Assembly (NCBI GenBank): GCA_022813865.1
Contig: JALDZX010000010.1
Coordinates: 62,001 to 126,000 of the forward strand
Length of the DNA: 64,000 nt
Direction of reading: 5' to 3'
DNA from: Xylographa opegraphella
Lineage: Eukaryota
In this document: in pieces, positions 22,171-27,481 of the stretch
Layout: each line of letters begins with the position of its first letter
Numbering within the stretch: the stretch's first letter is position 1
Notes under the pieces: generated by a model
The model's database searches: none
Told to the model about the DNA's origin: nothing
Seen by the model: the letters and a program-made list of their open reading frames with translations, nothing else
Position numbers and translations under genes: made by a program

Positions 22171-24239
22171 ATGGCGTCTGTATCGTCCCTTGATAGAGAT
22201 CTGCGCAACATGCGCCTAGAGAAATACACCCCTCGCCTTGCGAAAGAGGCTCGGGAGTGGATAGAAGAAGTATTAGGGGAGCGATTGAAAGCAGGGGATC
22301 TCTTGGATGCTTTAAAAAGCGGAGTGGCCCTTTGCAAGTCAGTGGTAATTCTTCTGCCAGTTCCGAAGTCATATTGACCTGCCATTATAGGCTCATGAAC
22401 CTAGCAATAGGGTCCCCAGGTCTACGGTATAAGGATTCGACAATGCCATTCGTACAGATGGAAAACATCTCACACTTCCTGAAGGCATGTCAAAGCCCAC
22501 CCATAAACTTACCTCCGCACGATGTCTTCCTCACAGTTGATCTCTACGAAGCCAAAGATCCGGCGCAGGTGTTACAATGCCTTGGAGCATTCAGTCGCCG
22601 TGCGAGTGCGATTCAGCCAGCCAGATTTCCGAGAGCGTTAGGAAAGATTAAGGCGGGTGTAATAAGTCCTCAGAGTACTGGGACTAGCCACGATGGGTAC
22701 ACCGGTCCTTCAAATGCGACCTATCAGCGCACTAGAGGCACAAGTAATGCTAGTGAGACTAGCACGTCGATACACAATCCCCCCTCACAGACCTTTGGCG
22801 GAAAAACAGGTCCGATGAAGAATGGTGGAACAACTTCGCCCTCCGGAGGTACCAGCAGCTGGAGCAAGAGAGCCGACGAAGGGGCTACTATGCCAGCATG
22901 GAACATTGCGCAATATGGCTATATGGGAGGCGCTAGTCAGGGAAATCAAGGAATCACTTTTGGAGGGCGAAGGCAGATTACAACCCCCGCTCCGAAAGTA
23001 CCTAGCTTGGCCGAAAAAGAGCGGAAACGACGGGAGGAGGAGGCGGAAACAGAAAGACTACGCATTCAGGCAGAGGAAGCCGAGCATAAACGACGAGTGC
23101 AGAGGGCAGCAGAGGAAGAGAGAGACAGGATAGCGGAGGAGAGGAGGTGGGAAGAAGAAACAAGAAAACAGAGGGAAAAGGAACGGAAGGAAGTAGAGGA
23201 AGAGAAATTGAGATGGGAAGAAGAAGAGAGGAGGTGGAAGAACGAGGAAGAACAACGATTGCGGGAAGAGAAAGAGCTAGAGGCTCACTTGGAGAAAGAG
23301 CGCCAAAGAAAAAGAGCCGGGAGTGACGCCCGCCTCAAAGGCCAGTTTCTCAGTCAATATCAAGCAGAGCAGGGCCATCTACCCATGAGTACTGGTAGAG
23401 ACGATCCAGCTCGGACCAAGGAGCATGAACGTGTAAAGGATCTTGAGAGGCAATTAGAAGAAGCAAAAGAACGAGAACGGCAATATGTGCGTGAGCGTCA
23501 GGGCTCAAAGTTACCGAGCAAGCCTGACGGGAATATATCGCCCAGCATTAGTTCTTTGCATCGCAGTACAGAGACTTCTAGCAACATGCCTGAGCAGAAT
23601 CCTTGGCAAGGCAAGGTTCCGCAACAGGACCTTTTACAATCTGACATACCGCCACGTCAACCGCCTCGCCCGCTTCCAGATCCAGCTGAAATACCTCCAT
23701 TACAGCCGCCTCGACCGTTACCGACACCCCAATCGACCCTCTCTCACTCCTTCGGCGACCCCCCAAGCCCCTTCCACGACGAACAGCCTTCTTTACCGGC
23801 ACGCCCGCTCCCCGACCCGACAGCCTATACCCCCAACTCTTCGCGCACCGATCGATTTCTGTCCACGAACCCAGCGCCCACTCCCCGCCAGCCGACCTCA
23901 CACCTCCCCTCGGAAGCATCCCACTCCACCACATCCGAGAAAGACGCCGAAACCGCGCGCCGGCTCGCATCCCAAACGAAGACGAAAGCCGGCGGCTTCG
24001 CCGCCAAAAGCATATTGGAGAGGGAGATGGAGAACGAGCGGATACGGCAGAAGGAGTGGGAGGAAGCACAGAAGGCGACCAAGGACGCGGCTCAGAGAGG
24101 GGTCAAGGCAGGGGGCTCCGGGCCGGGGGAGAGCTGGGATGTCCATCAGTACGGGTACATGGGTGGAGATAGTCAGAATAAGGTGGGCCCGGGGTTGGGA
24201 GGCAGGAGGCAGATTCTGGGACCGAGGCCACCACGATGA
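22171..24239 (+). CDS. Calponin-homology (transgelin/Scp1-like) actin-binding protein with long C-terminal extension, 2 exons
   Basis: 'EAREWIEEVLGERL...LKSGVALCKL...PFVQMENISHFL...FLTVDLYEAKD' CH domain and two calponin-like 'QYGYMGG.SQ...GGRRQI' repeats. Intron ~22338-22390. Confidence 0.85.
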
Positions 24240-24559: not shown

Positions 24560-25420
24560 CTACCGCCGATCTCCACCGCCGCCGAATGGTGGTGGCCCAA
24601 ACCCGCCCTGTCCACCAGGACTTGGACCCATACCTTGCGGCGGACCGAATTGTGGCGGAGGAAATCTAAAGTCTGGCGGTGGCATACCAGCAGGAAAAGG
24701 CATCCCACCGGGTAACGGTGGCATCCCGCCGGCTACGTTGGGTGGGAAGGGTGGGAAGGGCATGCCGTTTCCAGGCAGAGGTGCTAGAATTCATATATCA
24801 GAAATCTTTAATGCTTGCCAGATTCGTGGGTAGGATCATAAACAGTAAAGACTTACGAGGAAATCCTCCAGGGCCTCCAGCAGGCATACCGAATGGGGGC
24901 ATCATACCACCTGAAAATTATCTCCGTCAGTGATGCTTCTAAACTTTGGCTCAAGGGTGGTCTGAGACAATCGTACCGGGAAAGCCAAACGGCGGCGGGG
25001 GGAACGGCTGGCCAGGCCCGGGGTGTTGTCCCAGCATAGGGTTTGCGCCGGCCTGCCCTTCGGCGGCATAGGAAGAGGTAATAGAGTCGATCACAGACTG
25101 TGCTTTCTCGTGGCCGATTTCTGTGTTCAAGTCCCCGTCAGCAATGCTATCGTTTCGCAAGGATTTTATAGCGCAGAAACGTATTCTACGTACGTTGGTA
25201 GTAGTCAACCACATTTCGCAGGTGGTTCTTCCCGGTATTGTGCGCTTTCCGGACGCTCATGGAGTCGTGCGTGAGGTAGACATCGCAGTAGTCACCTTCC
25301 GAGGATTAGGCAAGCAGCTCTGGACTGTGGAGCGCGGGCCGGCGAGAGGAAACCTACAGAAGAGTGGATGGTTGTTAGTGAGGTACAGAACGTTGAGAGG
25401 TATAACTTATATTTTGGCAT
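24560..25420 (-). CDS. SNRPC: U1 snRNP protein C (U1-C, Yhc1/SNRPC orthologue), 6 exons: 25420-25411, 25363-25358, 25295-25194, 25120-24977, 24910-24857, 24783-24560
   Basis: Spliced translation '[61 protein letters not shown]' (matrin-type zinc finger) followed by a Pro/Gly-rich tail. Intron 1 is AT-AC, introns 2-5 are GT-AG. Confidence 0.95.
25364..25410 (-). other. Non-canonical AT-AC intron (47 nt, U2-type signals) in the U1-C gene
   Basis: Minus strand reads ATGCCAAAAT|ATAAGT...CACTAACAACCATCCAC|TCTTCT|GTAGGT. Its removal restores MPKFFC exactly. Branch point CTAAC at 25378-25374. Confidence 0.85.
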
Positions 25421-25729
25421 CTTGAGGCAGTCACTTCATGGACCCAACAAAATGGATGTGGCTGTAGTGACCTTGAATGTGGAGCGAATGCGGTGGAAGT
25501 CGCCAAACTTTCAGCCTTACGATGGAGCTGATGGAAATGGTCTAGCGCGAATGCCTTAACTTTCCTCTGAAATTGGGCTGACATTTCGTGATTGCGTCCA
25601 TATGAATAATGCTTGAAGCGGGCTTGTATGCGTTTGATGTCTGGAAAATATTATTCTAACTAATACTAAAACTACATTTCGGGGTATATTGCTGTCGACT
25701 GCCTCCATGATCCATAAAAGTACAGTCTA

Positions 25730-27271
25730 TCAAATCAATAGGCCCTCCTTCCTGAGCGCCTCCACATCACCTCCCGCTTCCATGACAGCCTTAGCAGCAG
25801 CCTCACTAAGTTTCCTTCGCCGGTCAGAAGCTTCCTTTTCCCTTCTAGCTTTTGTTTTCGAGCTCCCACTCGGTGCCACACCAGTCAGAATCTTGCGGCT
25901 ATCAGATGGTGTATAATTGACGAATCCTACTGCTCCAACTCCAACCGTTGGTGTCTTGGGCGTCTTGGGCGTCTTGGGCGTGCTACAGCTTGAGGATTTC
26001 CCACGAGAGTGCCGAGAATATCTTCGCGACTTCGATAAGTGGAGCGGAGTGTTCGGTGGAGAGGGTGACTGCGACCGATATTGTGACTGTATGTTGTGCA
26101 TACGTGGTACAGTAGTAGCAGGTGTGAGTTCTGACGAGTATCTTTCATCCTCTTCTATTGTGGCGTCGATGTGAAATGGGTCGAATGCAGACGCAAGGTA
26201 TTCCTTCGAAGGCTGCATGTCCTGAAATGGATCGTCGAATGGTCCACACTGGATCATCAAGCCTTGGTTGGCACAATCCGTAGGCATTTGCAAGAAGTCC
26301 ATTGATTGCATTTGTGTTTGGCTGTGCGATTGTAGTTCTTGTTCGTAAAGCGGCAATGGTTGTGGGAAGTCTGTCAAATCAGGCTGAAGATCGGCAGAGA
26401 AATCGAAATTTGAGTTTGACAACCACATGGAGGAGTTGCGGGTTTCCTCCATGGTCGGAGTGTATGAATTGCCTGCAGACACCCGAGACTGCTTTTGAAT
26501 TCTTGCTGAATTTTGGACAACAGTAGTAGGTGATATCGGGGACAAGGCTTCGAAGTCATGGTCAGAGAGGGTAAGCGTGGAAGATTGAGGTTGTTGCGGT
26601 AACACAGCAGACGAAGAAAGGGAGAGAGGAAAATTTTGAGGCGGTGTTTGAAGACTAAAATGTTGGAACCGTTCCGTCCACTCAGCAGATAAAGGTGAAT
26701 CCTGCCTTGCATAAAAAGAAGGTCGCATCATCTTTGGTGTTGCAGATGTTTTGGAAACCCGGTGAGCACTTCGCGTGGGCGTGACCGGGCTACCTGAACG
26801 GGAGCTTTGCTTTACCCGGCGTGGTGTGTAGGGCGGAGTATTCGGCTTCGAGAATGGAGTGGAGAGATCTGCTTGTTGGAGTTGTGCTTTGCCTTCGAGG
26901 TTAAGGAGCTCGTTACCAGAAATCGCGACACCATCAGGTCTCATACGGTGGACGACCTTCTGGCTTTGTGGGACTGGGGTGATCTTGTGTTGGCGCCACG
27001 CATTAGCTCTCCAAGAGTGCAGTGGTTGGTATTGTGGCGAAGAGGCTTTGGTAGCTGACTGCTCATCCAAAGAGACATCTCCTGACAAGCCTGCGCTGAG
27101 GTCTTCAAAGAAATTCGACTCATTGGAATTGTCGCTTGAGTCTGGAAAGTCTTCTTCCTGGCTGAAATACTGATCAAAGAAGTTGTCGAAAGAATGGTCC
27201 AAAGATGGTGAGAGGACACCCAGATCTTTGTCTTCGAATGGTGGAAAGTCGATTGAACCATCGATAGACAT
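25730..27271 (-). CDS. wetA: WetA developmental (spore maturation) regulator
   Basis: C-terminal ESC1/WetA domain 'GFVNYTPSDSRKILTGVAPSGSSKTKARREKEA' and N-terminal 'DHSFDNFFDQY'. ATG at 27271 sits in a GCCACCATG context. Confidence 0.92.
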   Translation of the reverse strand: MSIDGSIDFPPFEDKDLGVLSPSLDHSFDNFFDQYFSQEEDFPDSSDNSNESNFFEDLSAGLSGDVSLDEQSATKASSPQYQPLHSWRANAWRQHKITPVPQSQKVVHRMRPDGVAISGNELLNLEGKAQLQQADLSTPFSKPNTPPYTPRRVKQSSRSGSPVTPTRSAHRVSKTSATPKMMRPSFYARQDSPLSAEWTERFQHFSLQTPPQNFPLSLSSSAVLPQQPQSSTLTLSDHDFEALSPISPTTVVQNSARIQKQSRVSAGNSYTPTMEETRNSSMWLSNSNFDFSADLQPDLTDFPQPLPLYEQELQSHSQTQMQSMDFLQMPTDCANQGLMIQCGPFDDPFQDMQPSKEYLASAFDPFHIDATIEEDERYSSELTPATTVPRMHNIQSQYRSQSPSPPNTPLHLSKSRRYSRHSRGKSSSCSTPKTPKTPKTPTVGVGAVGFVNYTPSDSRKILTGVAPSGSSKTKARREKEASDRRRKLSEAAAKAVMEAGGDVEALRKEGLLI

Positions 27272-27481
27272 GGTGGCGCCCGAACTTGTTACTAGTTGCA
27301 ACTAGAGCCGCAGAATAGGTCAGTACCTTGCAGGAGCACACAGATGTTGAAGATGCAAGCTAATGCACGATGATGGATGCACAAACAGTACAAAACATTG
27401 GCGTAAGGAGAACAATTTATCACTTCCTGGCAGATCATTTTGTCCAGCCACTCAATGCTCGTCGAGGACCCTGAGAACACA

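Follow-up and report, generated by a model that had tools for sequence, protein, structure and literature searches.

Parker and Siliciano reportedly found in 1993 that engineered yeast introns carrying both a G1A and a G(-1)C exchange are partially rescued in a splicing reporter. Here we describe what appears to be a natural counterpart, the first intron (intron 1) of the gene for U1-C, which lies on the minus strand of a stretch of 64,000 nucleotides (nt) of Xylographa opegraphella DNA (GenBank assembly GCA_022813865.1, contig JALDZX010000010.1, positions 62,001 to 126,000; this whole stretch is called the window). The intron begins with AT and ends with AC, the same first and last changes as in the yeast mutants, and in fungal U1-C genes these ends covary naturally (24/24 and 36/36, see below). 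Unlike the reporter constructs the U1-C state is natural and fixed in a presumed essential gene, and it is known from sequence.

The closest described introns are the U2-type ("type II") AT–AC introns of human SCN4A and SCN5A (Sheth et al. 2006, PMC1557818; Gould et al. 2016, PMC5029451). According to the available text of these papers they have the same ends, the 5′ splice site /ATAAGT, a strong consensus among the U2-type AT–AC introns known so far, and an ordinary U2-type branch site, and their borders are conserved between distant species. In contrast, the intron described here sits in filamentous Ascomycota without any minor spliceosome, its host gene is U1-C, it measures only 47–56 nt and adjoins a 6-nt microexon, and the U1-C orthologues of other fungal lineages have a GT–AG intron, a GC–AG intron or none at this site. 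Fungi enter the available text of Sheth et al. (2006) only with a hypothesis on xylanase genes.

Two fungal cases are also related. In Aspergillus telomerase RNA, likewise in the Pezizomycotina, the same hexamer (AUAAGU) supports the first step by the major spliceosome while the second step is blocked, and the available text of Kannan et al. (2015, PMC4299874) ascribes this block to the interaction of the first and the last intron nucleotide. There cleavage alone makes the RNA 3′ end, whereas the AC end of the U1-C intron should permit ligation. The nested AT–AC event in RPL30 of Saccharomyces cerevisiae is an endogenous AT–AC junction in an ascomycete without a minor spliceosome, but as far as the source describes it (PMC5029451) it concerns about 1–2% of the transcripts, is non-coding and is unlike /ATAAGT; removal of the U1-C intron is needed for the protein and its 5′ site matches the consensus. 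The same source mentions that an engineered AT–AC intron is spliced in yeast. U12-type AT–AC introns, finally, share the terminal dinucleotides and the short distance from the branch site to the 3′ end with the U1-C intron, yet their ATATCCTT and TCCTTAAC motifs are missing here and, going by the accessible part of the survey taken up below, the host clade is without the machinery.

The AT–AC intron of the U1-C gene in the window

By its Pfam match and by the placement of cysteines and histidines the host gene is predicted to encode U1-C, a zf-U1 protein. The Pfam match covers 25293–25195 (E=4.6e-17) and starts at profile position 7 of 38, and therefore exactly six residues must stand ahead of this exon. 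The initial annotation had placed a 47-nt AT–AC intron in front of it and had proposed that only the removal of introns 1 and 2 (Table 1) gives the conserved start MPKFFCDYC. We found all elements of the intron at the minus-strand positions it had given, and no other reading yields this start. When the six exons are joined, a 540-nt open frame results which codes for 179 residues beginning with MPKFFCDYC. Cys6, Cys9, His24 and His30, which we take to be the zinc ligands, are all present in the joined product. The product shares 92% identity with a Lambiella model and, over the tail, 97% with a Xylographa soralifera model; with exon 4 as query the nearest named proteins are those of Xylographa, Icmadophila, Schaereria and Lambiella. 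By these matches the organism belongs to the Ostropomycetidae (Lecanoromycetes) or is closely related to them. Introns 2–5 of the gene are all GT–AG.

We asked how often such a signal arises by chance and searched both strands of the window and 100 shuffled versions of it for the composite pattern ATAAGT-N20-40-CTRAC-N7-11-AC. It occurs once in the window, at the U1-C site, with 0.27 occurrences expected anywhere, and 23/100 shuffled windows have it somewhere. That a chance pattern falls on both exact frame-restoring boundaries is far less likely than this anywhere-in-window rate.

An error of sequencing or assembly would have to account for two separate base changes and for the recurrence of the AT–AC state in 22 other loci. 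In addition, a Logan contig of run X1 is identical to the window over 25150–25560 at a word depth of 161.5, although this run is perhaps the assembly's own source and the data possibly the same. A decaying gene copy, on the other hand, is hard to reconcile with the intact frame of 179 residues, and we found nothing in favour of error or decay and regard an explanation of the AT–AC ends by either as extremely improbable. Runs X2 and X3, compared with the U1-C region, gave only the conserved exon and loose ends.

The initial annotation had also stated that there is no GT–AG solution. This holds for the conserved start, but two in-frame and stop-free GT–AG solutions do exist, with donors GTACCT at 25386 and GTTTCC at 25353, both joined to the acceptor at 25296; neither yields the conserved start. 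The first of them keeps a Cys directly before DYC, and the window organism could splice this canonical intron instead and make an N-terminally extended U1-C. However, position +5 of the GTACCT donor is not a G, and the conserved MPKFF start, which corresponds to profile positions 1–6, is missing from the product. We searched 17 representatives of the AT–AC loci described below exhaustively for GT–AG alternatives and found no shared solution and none giving MPK[FY][FY]C. Some Cys-keeping alternative is present in 8/17 clusters, with differing donors and products, and 3/17 have no GT–AG alternative whatever. Because no alternative is common to the representatives and none gives the conserved start, we attribute the GT–AG alternatives of the window to chance and consider their use by the organism very unlikely.

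Window intron 1 combines AT–AC ends, an /ATAAGT 5′ site and a U2-type branch site and contains no U12 motifs. Since it has the signals of the major spliceosome and the U12 motifs are absent, we class it as U2-type. The AT–AC ends and a short, fixed branch-to-3′ distance (10–13 nt among the related loci) would also suit an intron of the minor spliceosome. The initial annotation had, however, reported that the U12 signatures are missing, and indeed neither the ATATCC 5′ site nor the TCCTTAAC branch motif is present in the intron: the 5′ site is ATAAGT (the ATATCCTT motif is absent) and the branch site is CTRAC. Moreover, orthologous introns at the same site carry ordinary U2-type GT–AG or GC–AG signals, and a survey of >3000 genomes has, in its accessible part, no convincing minor introns or minor-spliceosome small nuclear RNAs (snRNAs) in Ascomycota. 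Removal by the minor spliceosome can thus hardly be credited.

Table 1. Features of the U1-C gene in the window (positions in the window; all on the minus strand)
Feature	Position	Strand	Basis
U1-C exon 1, ATG CCA AAA T (ATGCCAAAAT; start codon + 7 nt)	25411..25420	-	sequence, joined frame
Intron 1, 47 nt, AT–AC ends (ATAAGT…CACTAAC…CCAC), phase 1 in codon 4	25364..25410	-	sequence, related loci
Intron 1 5′ splice site ATAAGT, A at +1	25405..25410	-	sequence; consensus of U2-type AT–AC introns
Intron 1 putative branch site CACTAAC; presumed branch A 25375, 11 nt from 3′ end	25374..25380	-	branch point inferred
Exon 2, 6-nt microexon TCTTCT	25358..25363	-	sequence, joined frame, related loci
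Intron 2, 62 nt, GTAGGT…CTAAT…GGAAG, phase 1 in Cys6 codon	25296..25357	-	sequence, related loci
Exon 3, last 2 bases of Cys6 codon and zf-U1 residues; begins GTGACTACTGC at 25295	25194..25295	-	Pfam zf-U1 E=4.6e-17
Stop codon TGA met in shifted frame upon intron 1 retention	25257..25259	-	sequence
Intron 3, 73 nt, GTACGT…CAG	25121..25193	-	joined frame
Exon 4, ending …FGFPG	24977..25120	-	joined frame, protein homologues
Intron 4, 66 nt, GTACGA…CAG	24911..24976	-	joined frame
Exon 5	24857..24910	-	joined protein aligns with Xylographa and Lambiella models
Intron 5, 73 nt, GTAAGT…TAG	24784..24856	-	joined frame
Exon 6, Pro/Gly-rich tail, stop TAG 24562-24560	24560..24783	-	joined frame

Long open frames lie on either side of U1-C, at 25730–27301 on the minus strand and at 22197–24239 on the plus strand (523 and 680 residues), the longer of which contains a Glu/Arg/Lys-rich stretch. 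Neither of the two frames gave a Pfam family at E<=0.001.

Intron termini at the orthologous position

The initial annotation had suggested that conservation of the AT and AC ends be checked in orthologous loci. We did so in a metagenomic set, which was obtained by a U1-C alignment scan of metagenome contigs of the Joint Genome Institute; the best 80 of 239 relatives were taken and together with the window make 81 sequences. Each was parsed for a start codon, an optional intron 1, a six-base WYTWYT word, an optional intron 2 and then GY, with the ends of intron 1 left unconstrained. The window and 79/80 loci could be parsed, each with a single solution; the remaining locus (L079) has only 61 nt upstream. 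The gene opens with ATGCC.AA.T in 79/80 related loci.

The AT–AC intron does recur. Among the 81 sequences 23 (22 loci and the window) have an AT–AC intron 1 followed by a GT–AG intron 2, 10 have GT–AG introns at both positions, 23 a GT–AG intron 1 alone, 3 a GC–AG intron 1 alone and 19 neither intron. One locus (L032) shows an AT–AC intron 1 without intron 2, another (L054) a GT–AG intron 2 without intron 1, and one is the unparsed locus. Intron 1 is thus present in 60 sequences (AT–AC in 24, GT–AG in 33, GC–AG in 3) and absent in 20. The termini covary completely: all 24 introns starting with AT, the window included, end with AC, and all 36 starting with GT or GC end with AG. This natural covariation is what an interaction of the first and last intron nucleotides predicts. 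The GC–AG introns, in L016, L029 and L049, have the donors GCAAGA, GCACGT and GCAAGC, and with them three terminal types are found at one orthologous site.

The AT–AC set comprises 19 distinct sequences. Grouped at 85% similarity they form 17 clusters, or 16 if only intron 1 is used. The bodies of the introns do not align. What is kept are ATAaGT, CT.AC, the terminal AC, the microexon and the GTAGG of intron 2. In all AT–AC clusters intron 1 is 47–56 nt long and the presumed branch A lies 10–13 nt from the 3′ end. The 5′ site reads ATAAGT in 14/16 clusters, and TAAGT at +2 to +6 is found in 14/16 AT clusters versus 9/26 GT/GC clusters (Fisher p=0.0012, without phylogenetic independence of the clusters).

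Some further observations concern the sequences around the intron. Exon 1 ends with AAAT in 16/16 AT–AC clusters, whereas the GT/GC clusters have AAAT in 18 and AAGT in 8 cases (Fisher p=0.016). The AAAT end may reflect avoidance of a competing donor, as AAGT before ATAAGT creates a GT two bases upstream. A microexon of the TCTTCT type between two introns is present in the window and in 32/80 related loci, 22 with an AT–AC and 10 with a GT–AG intron 1; in some loci it reads TCTTTT or TTTTTT (microexon-bearing loci include L004 and L013). L005–L008, L017 and L019 form one lineage with an extremely C-rich GT–AG intron 1, weak donors (GTAACC or GTACCT) and Ile for Met in the zinc-finger exon (DSISVRK). 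A 230-nt contig of run X3, from another organism, reads …CGCTAAC, 11 nt ending in AC, TCTTCT and then the zinc-finger exon without intron 2 (at window 25295). It represents either an AT–AC lineage that has no intron 2 or a partially spliced RNA, although the run is labelled as probable DNA.

We also tried to label the metagenomic loci by tblastn with the tails of named U1-C proteins; this was dropped, because the best matches were inconsistent owing to the richness of the tail in Pro and Gly. A named relative was sought for the lineage of L026 and none was found.

Transcript-like contigs and gene models of named fungi

The two loci in which only one of the introns is present deserve a closer look. 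L032 (1045 nt) and L054 (1030 nt), both from the metagenome collection, share 97.2% identity over 941 nt. At the 5′ end the two contigs start no more than 18 nt apart, at the 3′ end they almost coincide, about 390 nt beyond the stop codon, and they contain no other introns. L032 keeps a 50-nt intron of the form ATAAGT…CTGAC…AC and has no intron 2. L054 reads ATGCCGAAAT and then directly TCTTCT, with intron 1 missing exactly (AAAT|TCTTCT), and keeps a 56-nt intron 2. The coincident ends and the complementary introns lead us to regard both as transcripts spliced in part, with the AT–AC junction visible in L054. As a control, L009 and L011 correspond to L033 minus its 100-nt GT–AG intron and are 99–100% identical to it on both sides. 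In its Pro-rich tail L054 is one base short of L032, which shifts the frame of the protein called from it (P0276).

The closest named proteins of both contigs come from Aureobasidium species (93–97% identity). In one Aureobasidium genome the model reads through intron 1 to give the peptide …LLTFNYSS, as in L032, and continues with Val-Gly; the genome hence has both introns. An A. pullulans model which represents a cluster of 61 members (P0272) starts with MPKFFCDYC. We also looked for fully spliced transcripts among database proteins whose in-frame 5′ untranslated region matches an AT–AC locus; only the intron-less loci L063 and L068 were matched.

Gene models that read through the intron expose its first bases, and a start of the type MPKY… requires an A at +1. 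Such starts are found in Lecanoromycetes, namely Xylographa soralifera and Lambiella insularis (Ostropomycetidae, both MPKYK…) and Villophora microphyllina (Lecanoromycetidae, Teloschistales, MPKYR…), and in Dothideomycetes, namely an Aureobasidium sp. (Dothideales) and Saccharata proteae (Botryosphaeriales), both MPKYK…. The model of Polytolypa hystricis (Eurotiomycetes, Onygenales) starts with MHSSVG…, which corresponds to CAY+TCTTCT+GTAGG, and its His codon excludes an AG intron end. Read in this way, the models place the AT-type intron in Lecanoromycetes, Dothideomycetes and Eurotiomycetes. In Hymenoscyphus fraxineus (Leotiomycetes) the model (P0098) starts with MPKCDYC, the outcome to be expected when a predictor splices from the donor of a GT–AG intron 1 straight to the intron 2 acceptor and so leaves out the microexon, and Sordariomycete models start with MPKFFC and then read through intron 2.

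In total 268 U1-C proteins were compared. The start is correct in 79, 76 begin after DYC, 15 are MPKY read-throughs, 7 start with MPKC, 3 have MPKFFC followed by intron 2 read-through and a further 88 have some other wrong start. No named lichen-fungus model that we examined has the correct start. Among public models, those of lichen-forming and other fungi frequently begin at an internal Met (MSVRKAHN…), fuse with a neighbouring gene or read through (examples are P0003, P0008, P0011, P0012, P0016, P0033, P0063, P0071 and P0080). With an internal start or intron read-through the first two zinc-finger cysteines are lost.

Taken together, the window intron is very probably a genuine spliceosomal intron of U1-C with AT–AC ends that is removed by the major (U2-type) spliceosome. 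Several points weigh against this conclusion. The junction comes from two contigs of inferred transcript nature which are about 3% apart and hence stem from different strains, and which belong to an Aureobasidium-like relative and not to the window organism or a named lichen fungus. As both contigs are incompletely spliced, splicing could be inefficient or regulated rather than constitutive. The 22 AT–AC loci are known from metagenome contigs without taxonomic label, and the tree, built from 165 coding nt (59 rows; both parts were available in 71/81 sequences), has poor resolution and cannot tell a single from multiple AT–AC origins. The tight signals of the AT–AC introns (TAAGT at +2 to +6 and the short length) are confounded, since the six GT–AG clusters with a microexon are equally short and 5/6 have GTAAGT. 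Finally, the search for U11/U12 snRNAs covered the 64-kb window, on which Rfam gave 0 hits.

Persistence of the AT–AC pair

How the intron could be spliced and retained may be pictured as follows. In ATAAGT the nucleotides that pair with U1 and U6 (+2 to +6) would be unchanged, and CACTAAC, 11 nt before the 3′ end, would act as a branch site of the usual fungal kind. A1 and C(-1) would stand in for the usual non-Watson–Crick contact between G1 and G(-1), by which the 3′ site is placed for step 2. The intron occupies an old position (phase 1, codon 4), which in other Pezizomycotina holds a GT–AG intron, a GC–AG intron or none; in the AT–AC lineages the 6-nt microexon and a normal GT–AG intron follow it. 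Either single reversion (AT…AG or GT…AC) should impair the second step. Since a single reversion would stall this step in a presumed essential gene, epistasis seems the simplest reason for the persistence of the AT–AC pair. What the data show directly is the anatomy of the sequence, the covariation of its ends, their conservation and, in transcript-like contigs of a relative, the exact junction; that the major spliceosome acts here, where the branch point lies, that splicing is constitutive in the window organism and that such an epistatic lock exists is our interpretation.

The initial annotation had gone further and proposed a feedback switch, in which the intron serves as an autoregulatory or fidelity sensor, the retained form is degraded by nonsense-mediated decay and U1-C output follows U1-C or spliceosome activity. 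Its statement that retention of intron 1 leads to a TGA upstream of three more introns agrees with the sequence, and in silico retention gives a premature stop, by frameshift or by a stop within the intron, in the window and in 17/17 AT–AC representatives. The transcript-like contig L032 retains intron 1, 2/2 Aureobasidium-like contigs are incompletely spliced, and the AT–AC state is kept over three fungal classes. Moreover, U1C-dependent cross-regulation of U1-70K by alternative splicing is reported for human in the accessible part of one study (PMC3798272). Yet any intron at this site would give a premature stop when retained, and in the alignment of the 17 representatives nothing is conserved in the intron beyond the splice signals. 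The site has a GT–AG, a GC–AG or no intron in 55/79 parsed loci, and the gene consequently works without an AT–AC intron. If U1-C assists weak 5′ sites, less U1-C would presumably lead to less productive U1-C mRNA, which is positive feedback and not homeostasis, and a two-mutation lock accounts for the persistence without any function. The switch is thus speculative and appears unlikely to us.

A different function may be sought in the microexon. If it is skipped, the product is MPKCDYC and Phe4 and Phe5 are lost. Splicing from an AT donor to the AG end of intron 2 would not go to completion, and the AT–AC pair would in this way block the skipping, which is in frame in the window and in the related loci. 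Exactly the skipped product was made by the gene predictor for Hymenoscyphus fraxineus, and in the available text of the Aspergillus study (PMC4299874) an A at +1 together with an AG 3′ end blocks step 2. In addition, the AT–AC intron is confined to clusters with intron 2 and the microexon, which are present in 16/16 AT versus 6/26 GT/GC clusters (Fisher p=4.8e-7, the clusters not being independent); here L032 was counted as a carrier of intron 2 on account of its near-identical partner L054. The association may, however, reflect shared ancestry only, given that the clusters are non-independent and the tree does not resolve them, and 10 loci in 6 clusters keep the microexon between two GT–AG introns, so that such a block is not needed. 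It seems improbable that prevention of skipping is the reason for the AT–AC pair. A checkpoint limited by the second step is another possibility; the AT–AC ends would then tie the output of U1-C, which helps to read the 5′ splice site, to the performance of the spliceosome. That the pair is held by selection, through either of these two effects, and is not a frozen accident, is conceivable but rather doubtful.

The comparison supports well the view that intron 1 of U1-C is a real, old and conserved U2-type AT–AC intron and a new member of a rare known type. A published description of it was not found in our literature search, whose coverage left out most subscription journals. The intron amounts to a natural version, carried out in many lineages, of the experiment on the first and last intron nucleotides, with AT–AC, GT–AG and GC–AG but no mixed forms. 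It also means that a core spliceosomal gene can retain a U2-type AT–AC intron over very long times in fungi without a minor spliceosome. Gene finders restricted to GT–AG and GC–AG will go on to mis-start U1-C (MSVRK… or read-through). As the intron appears to be present in Aureobasidium, which is yeast-like and can be cultured, the question whether the AT–AC pair is a lock, a sensor or an accident is open to direct testing.

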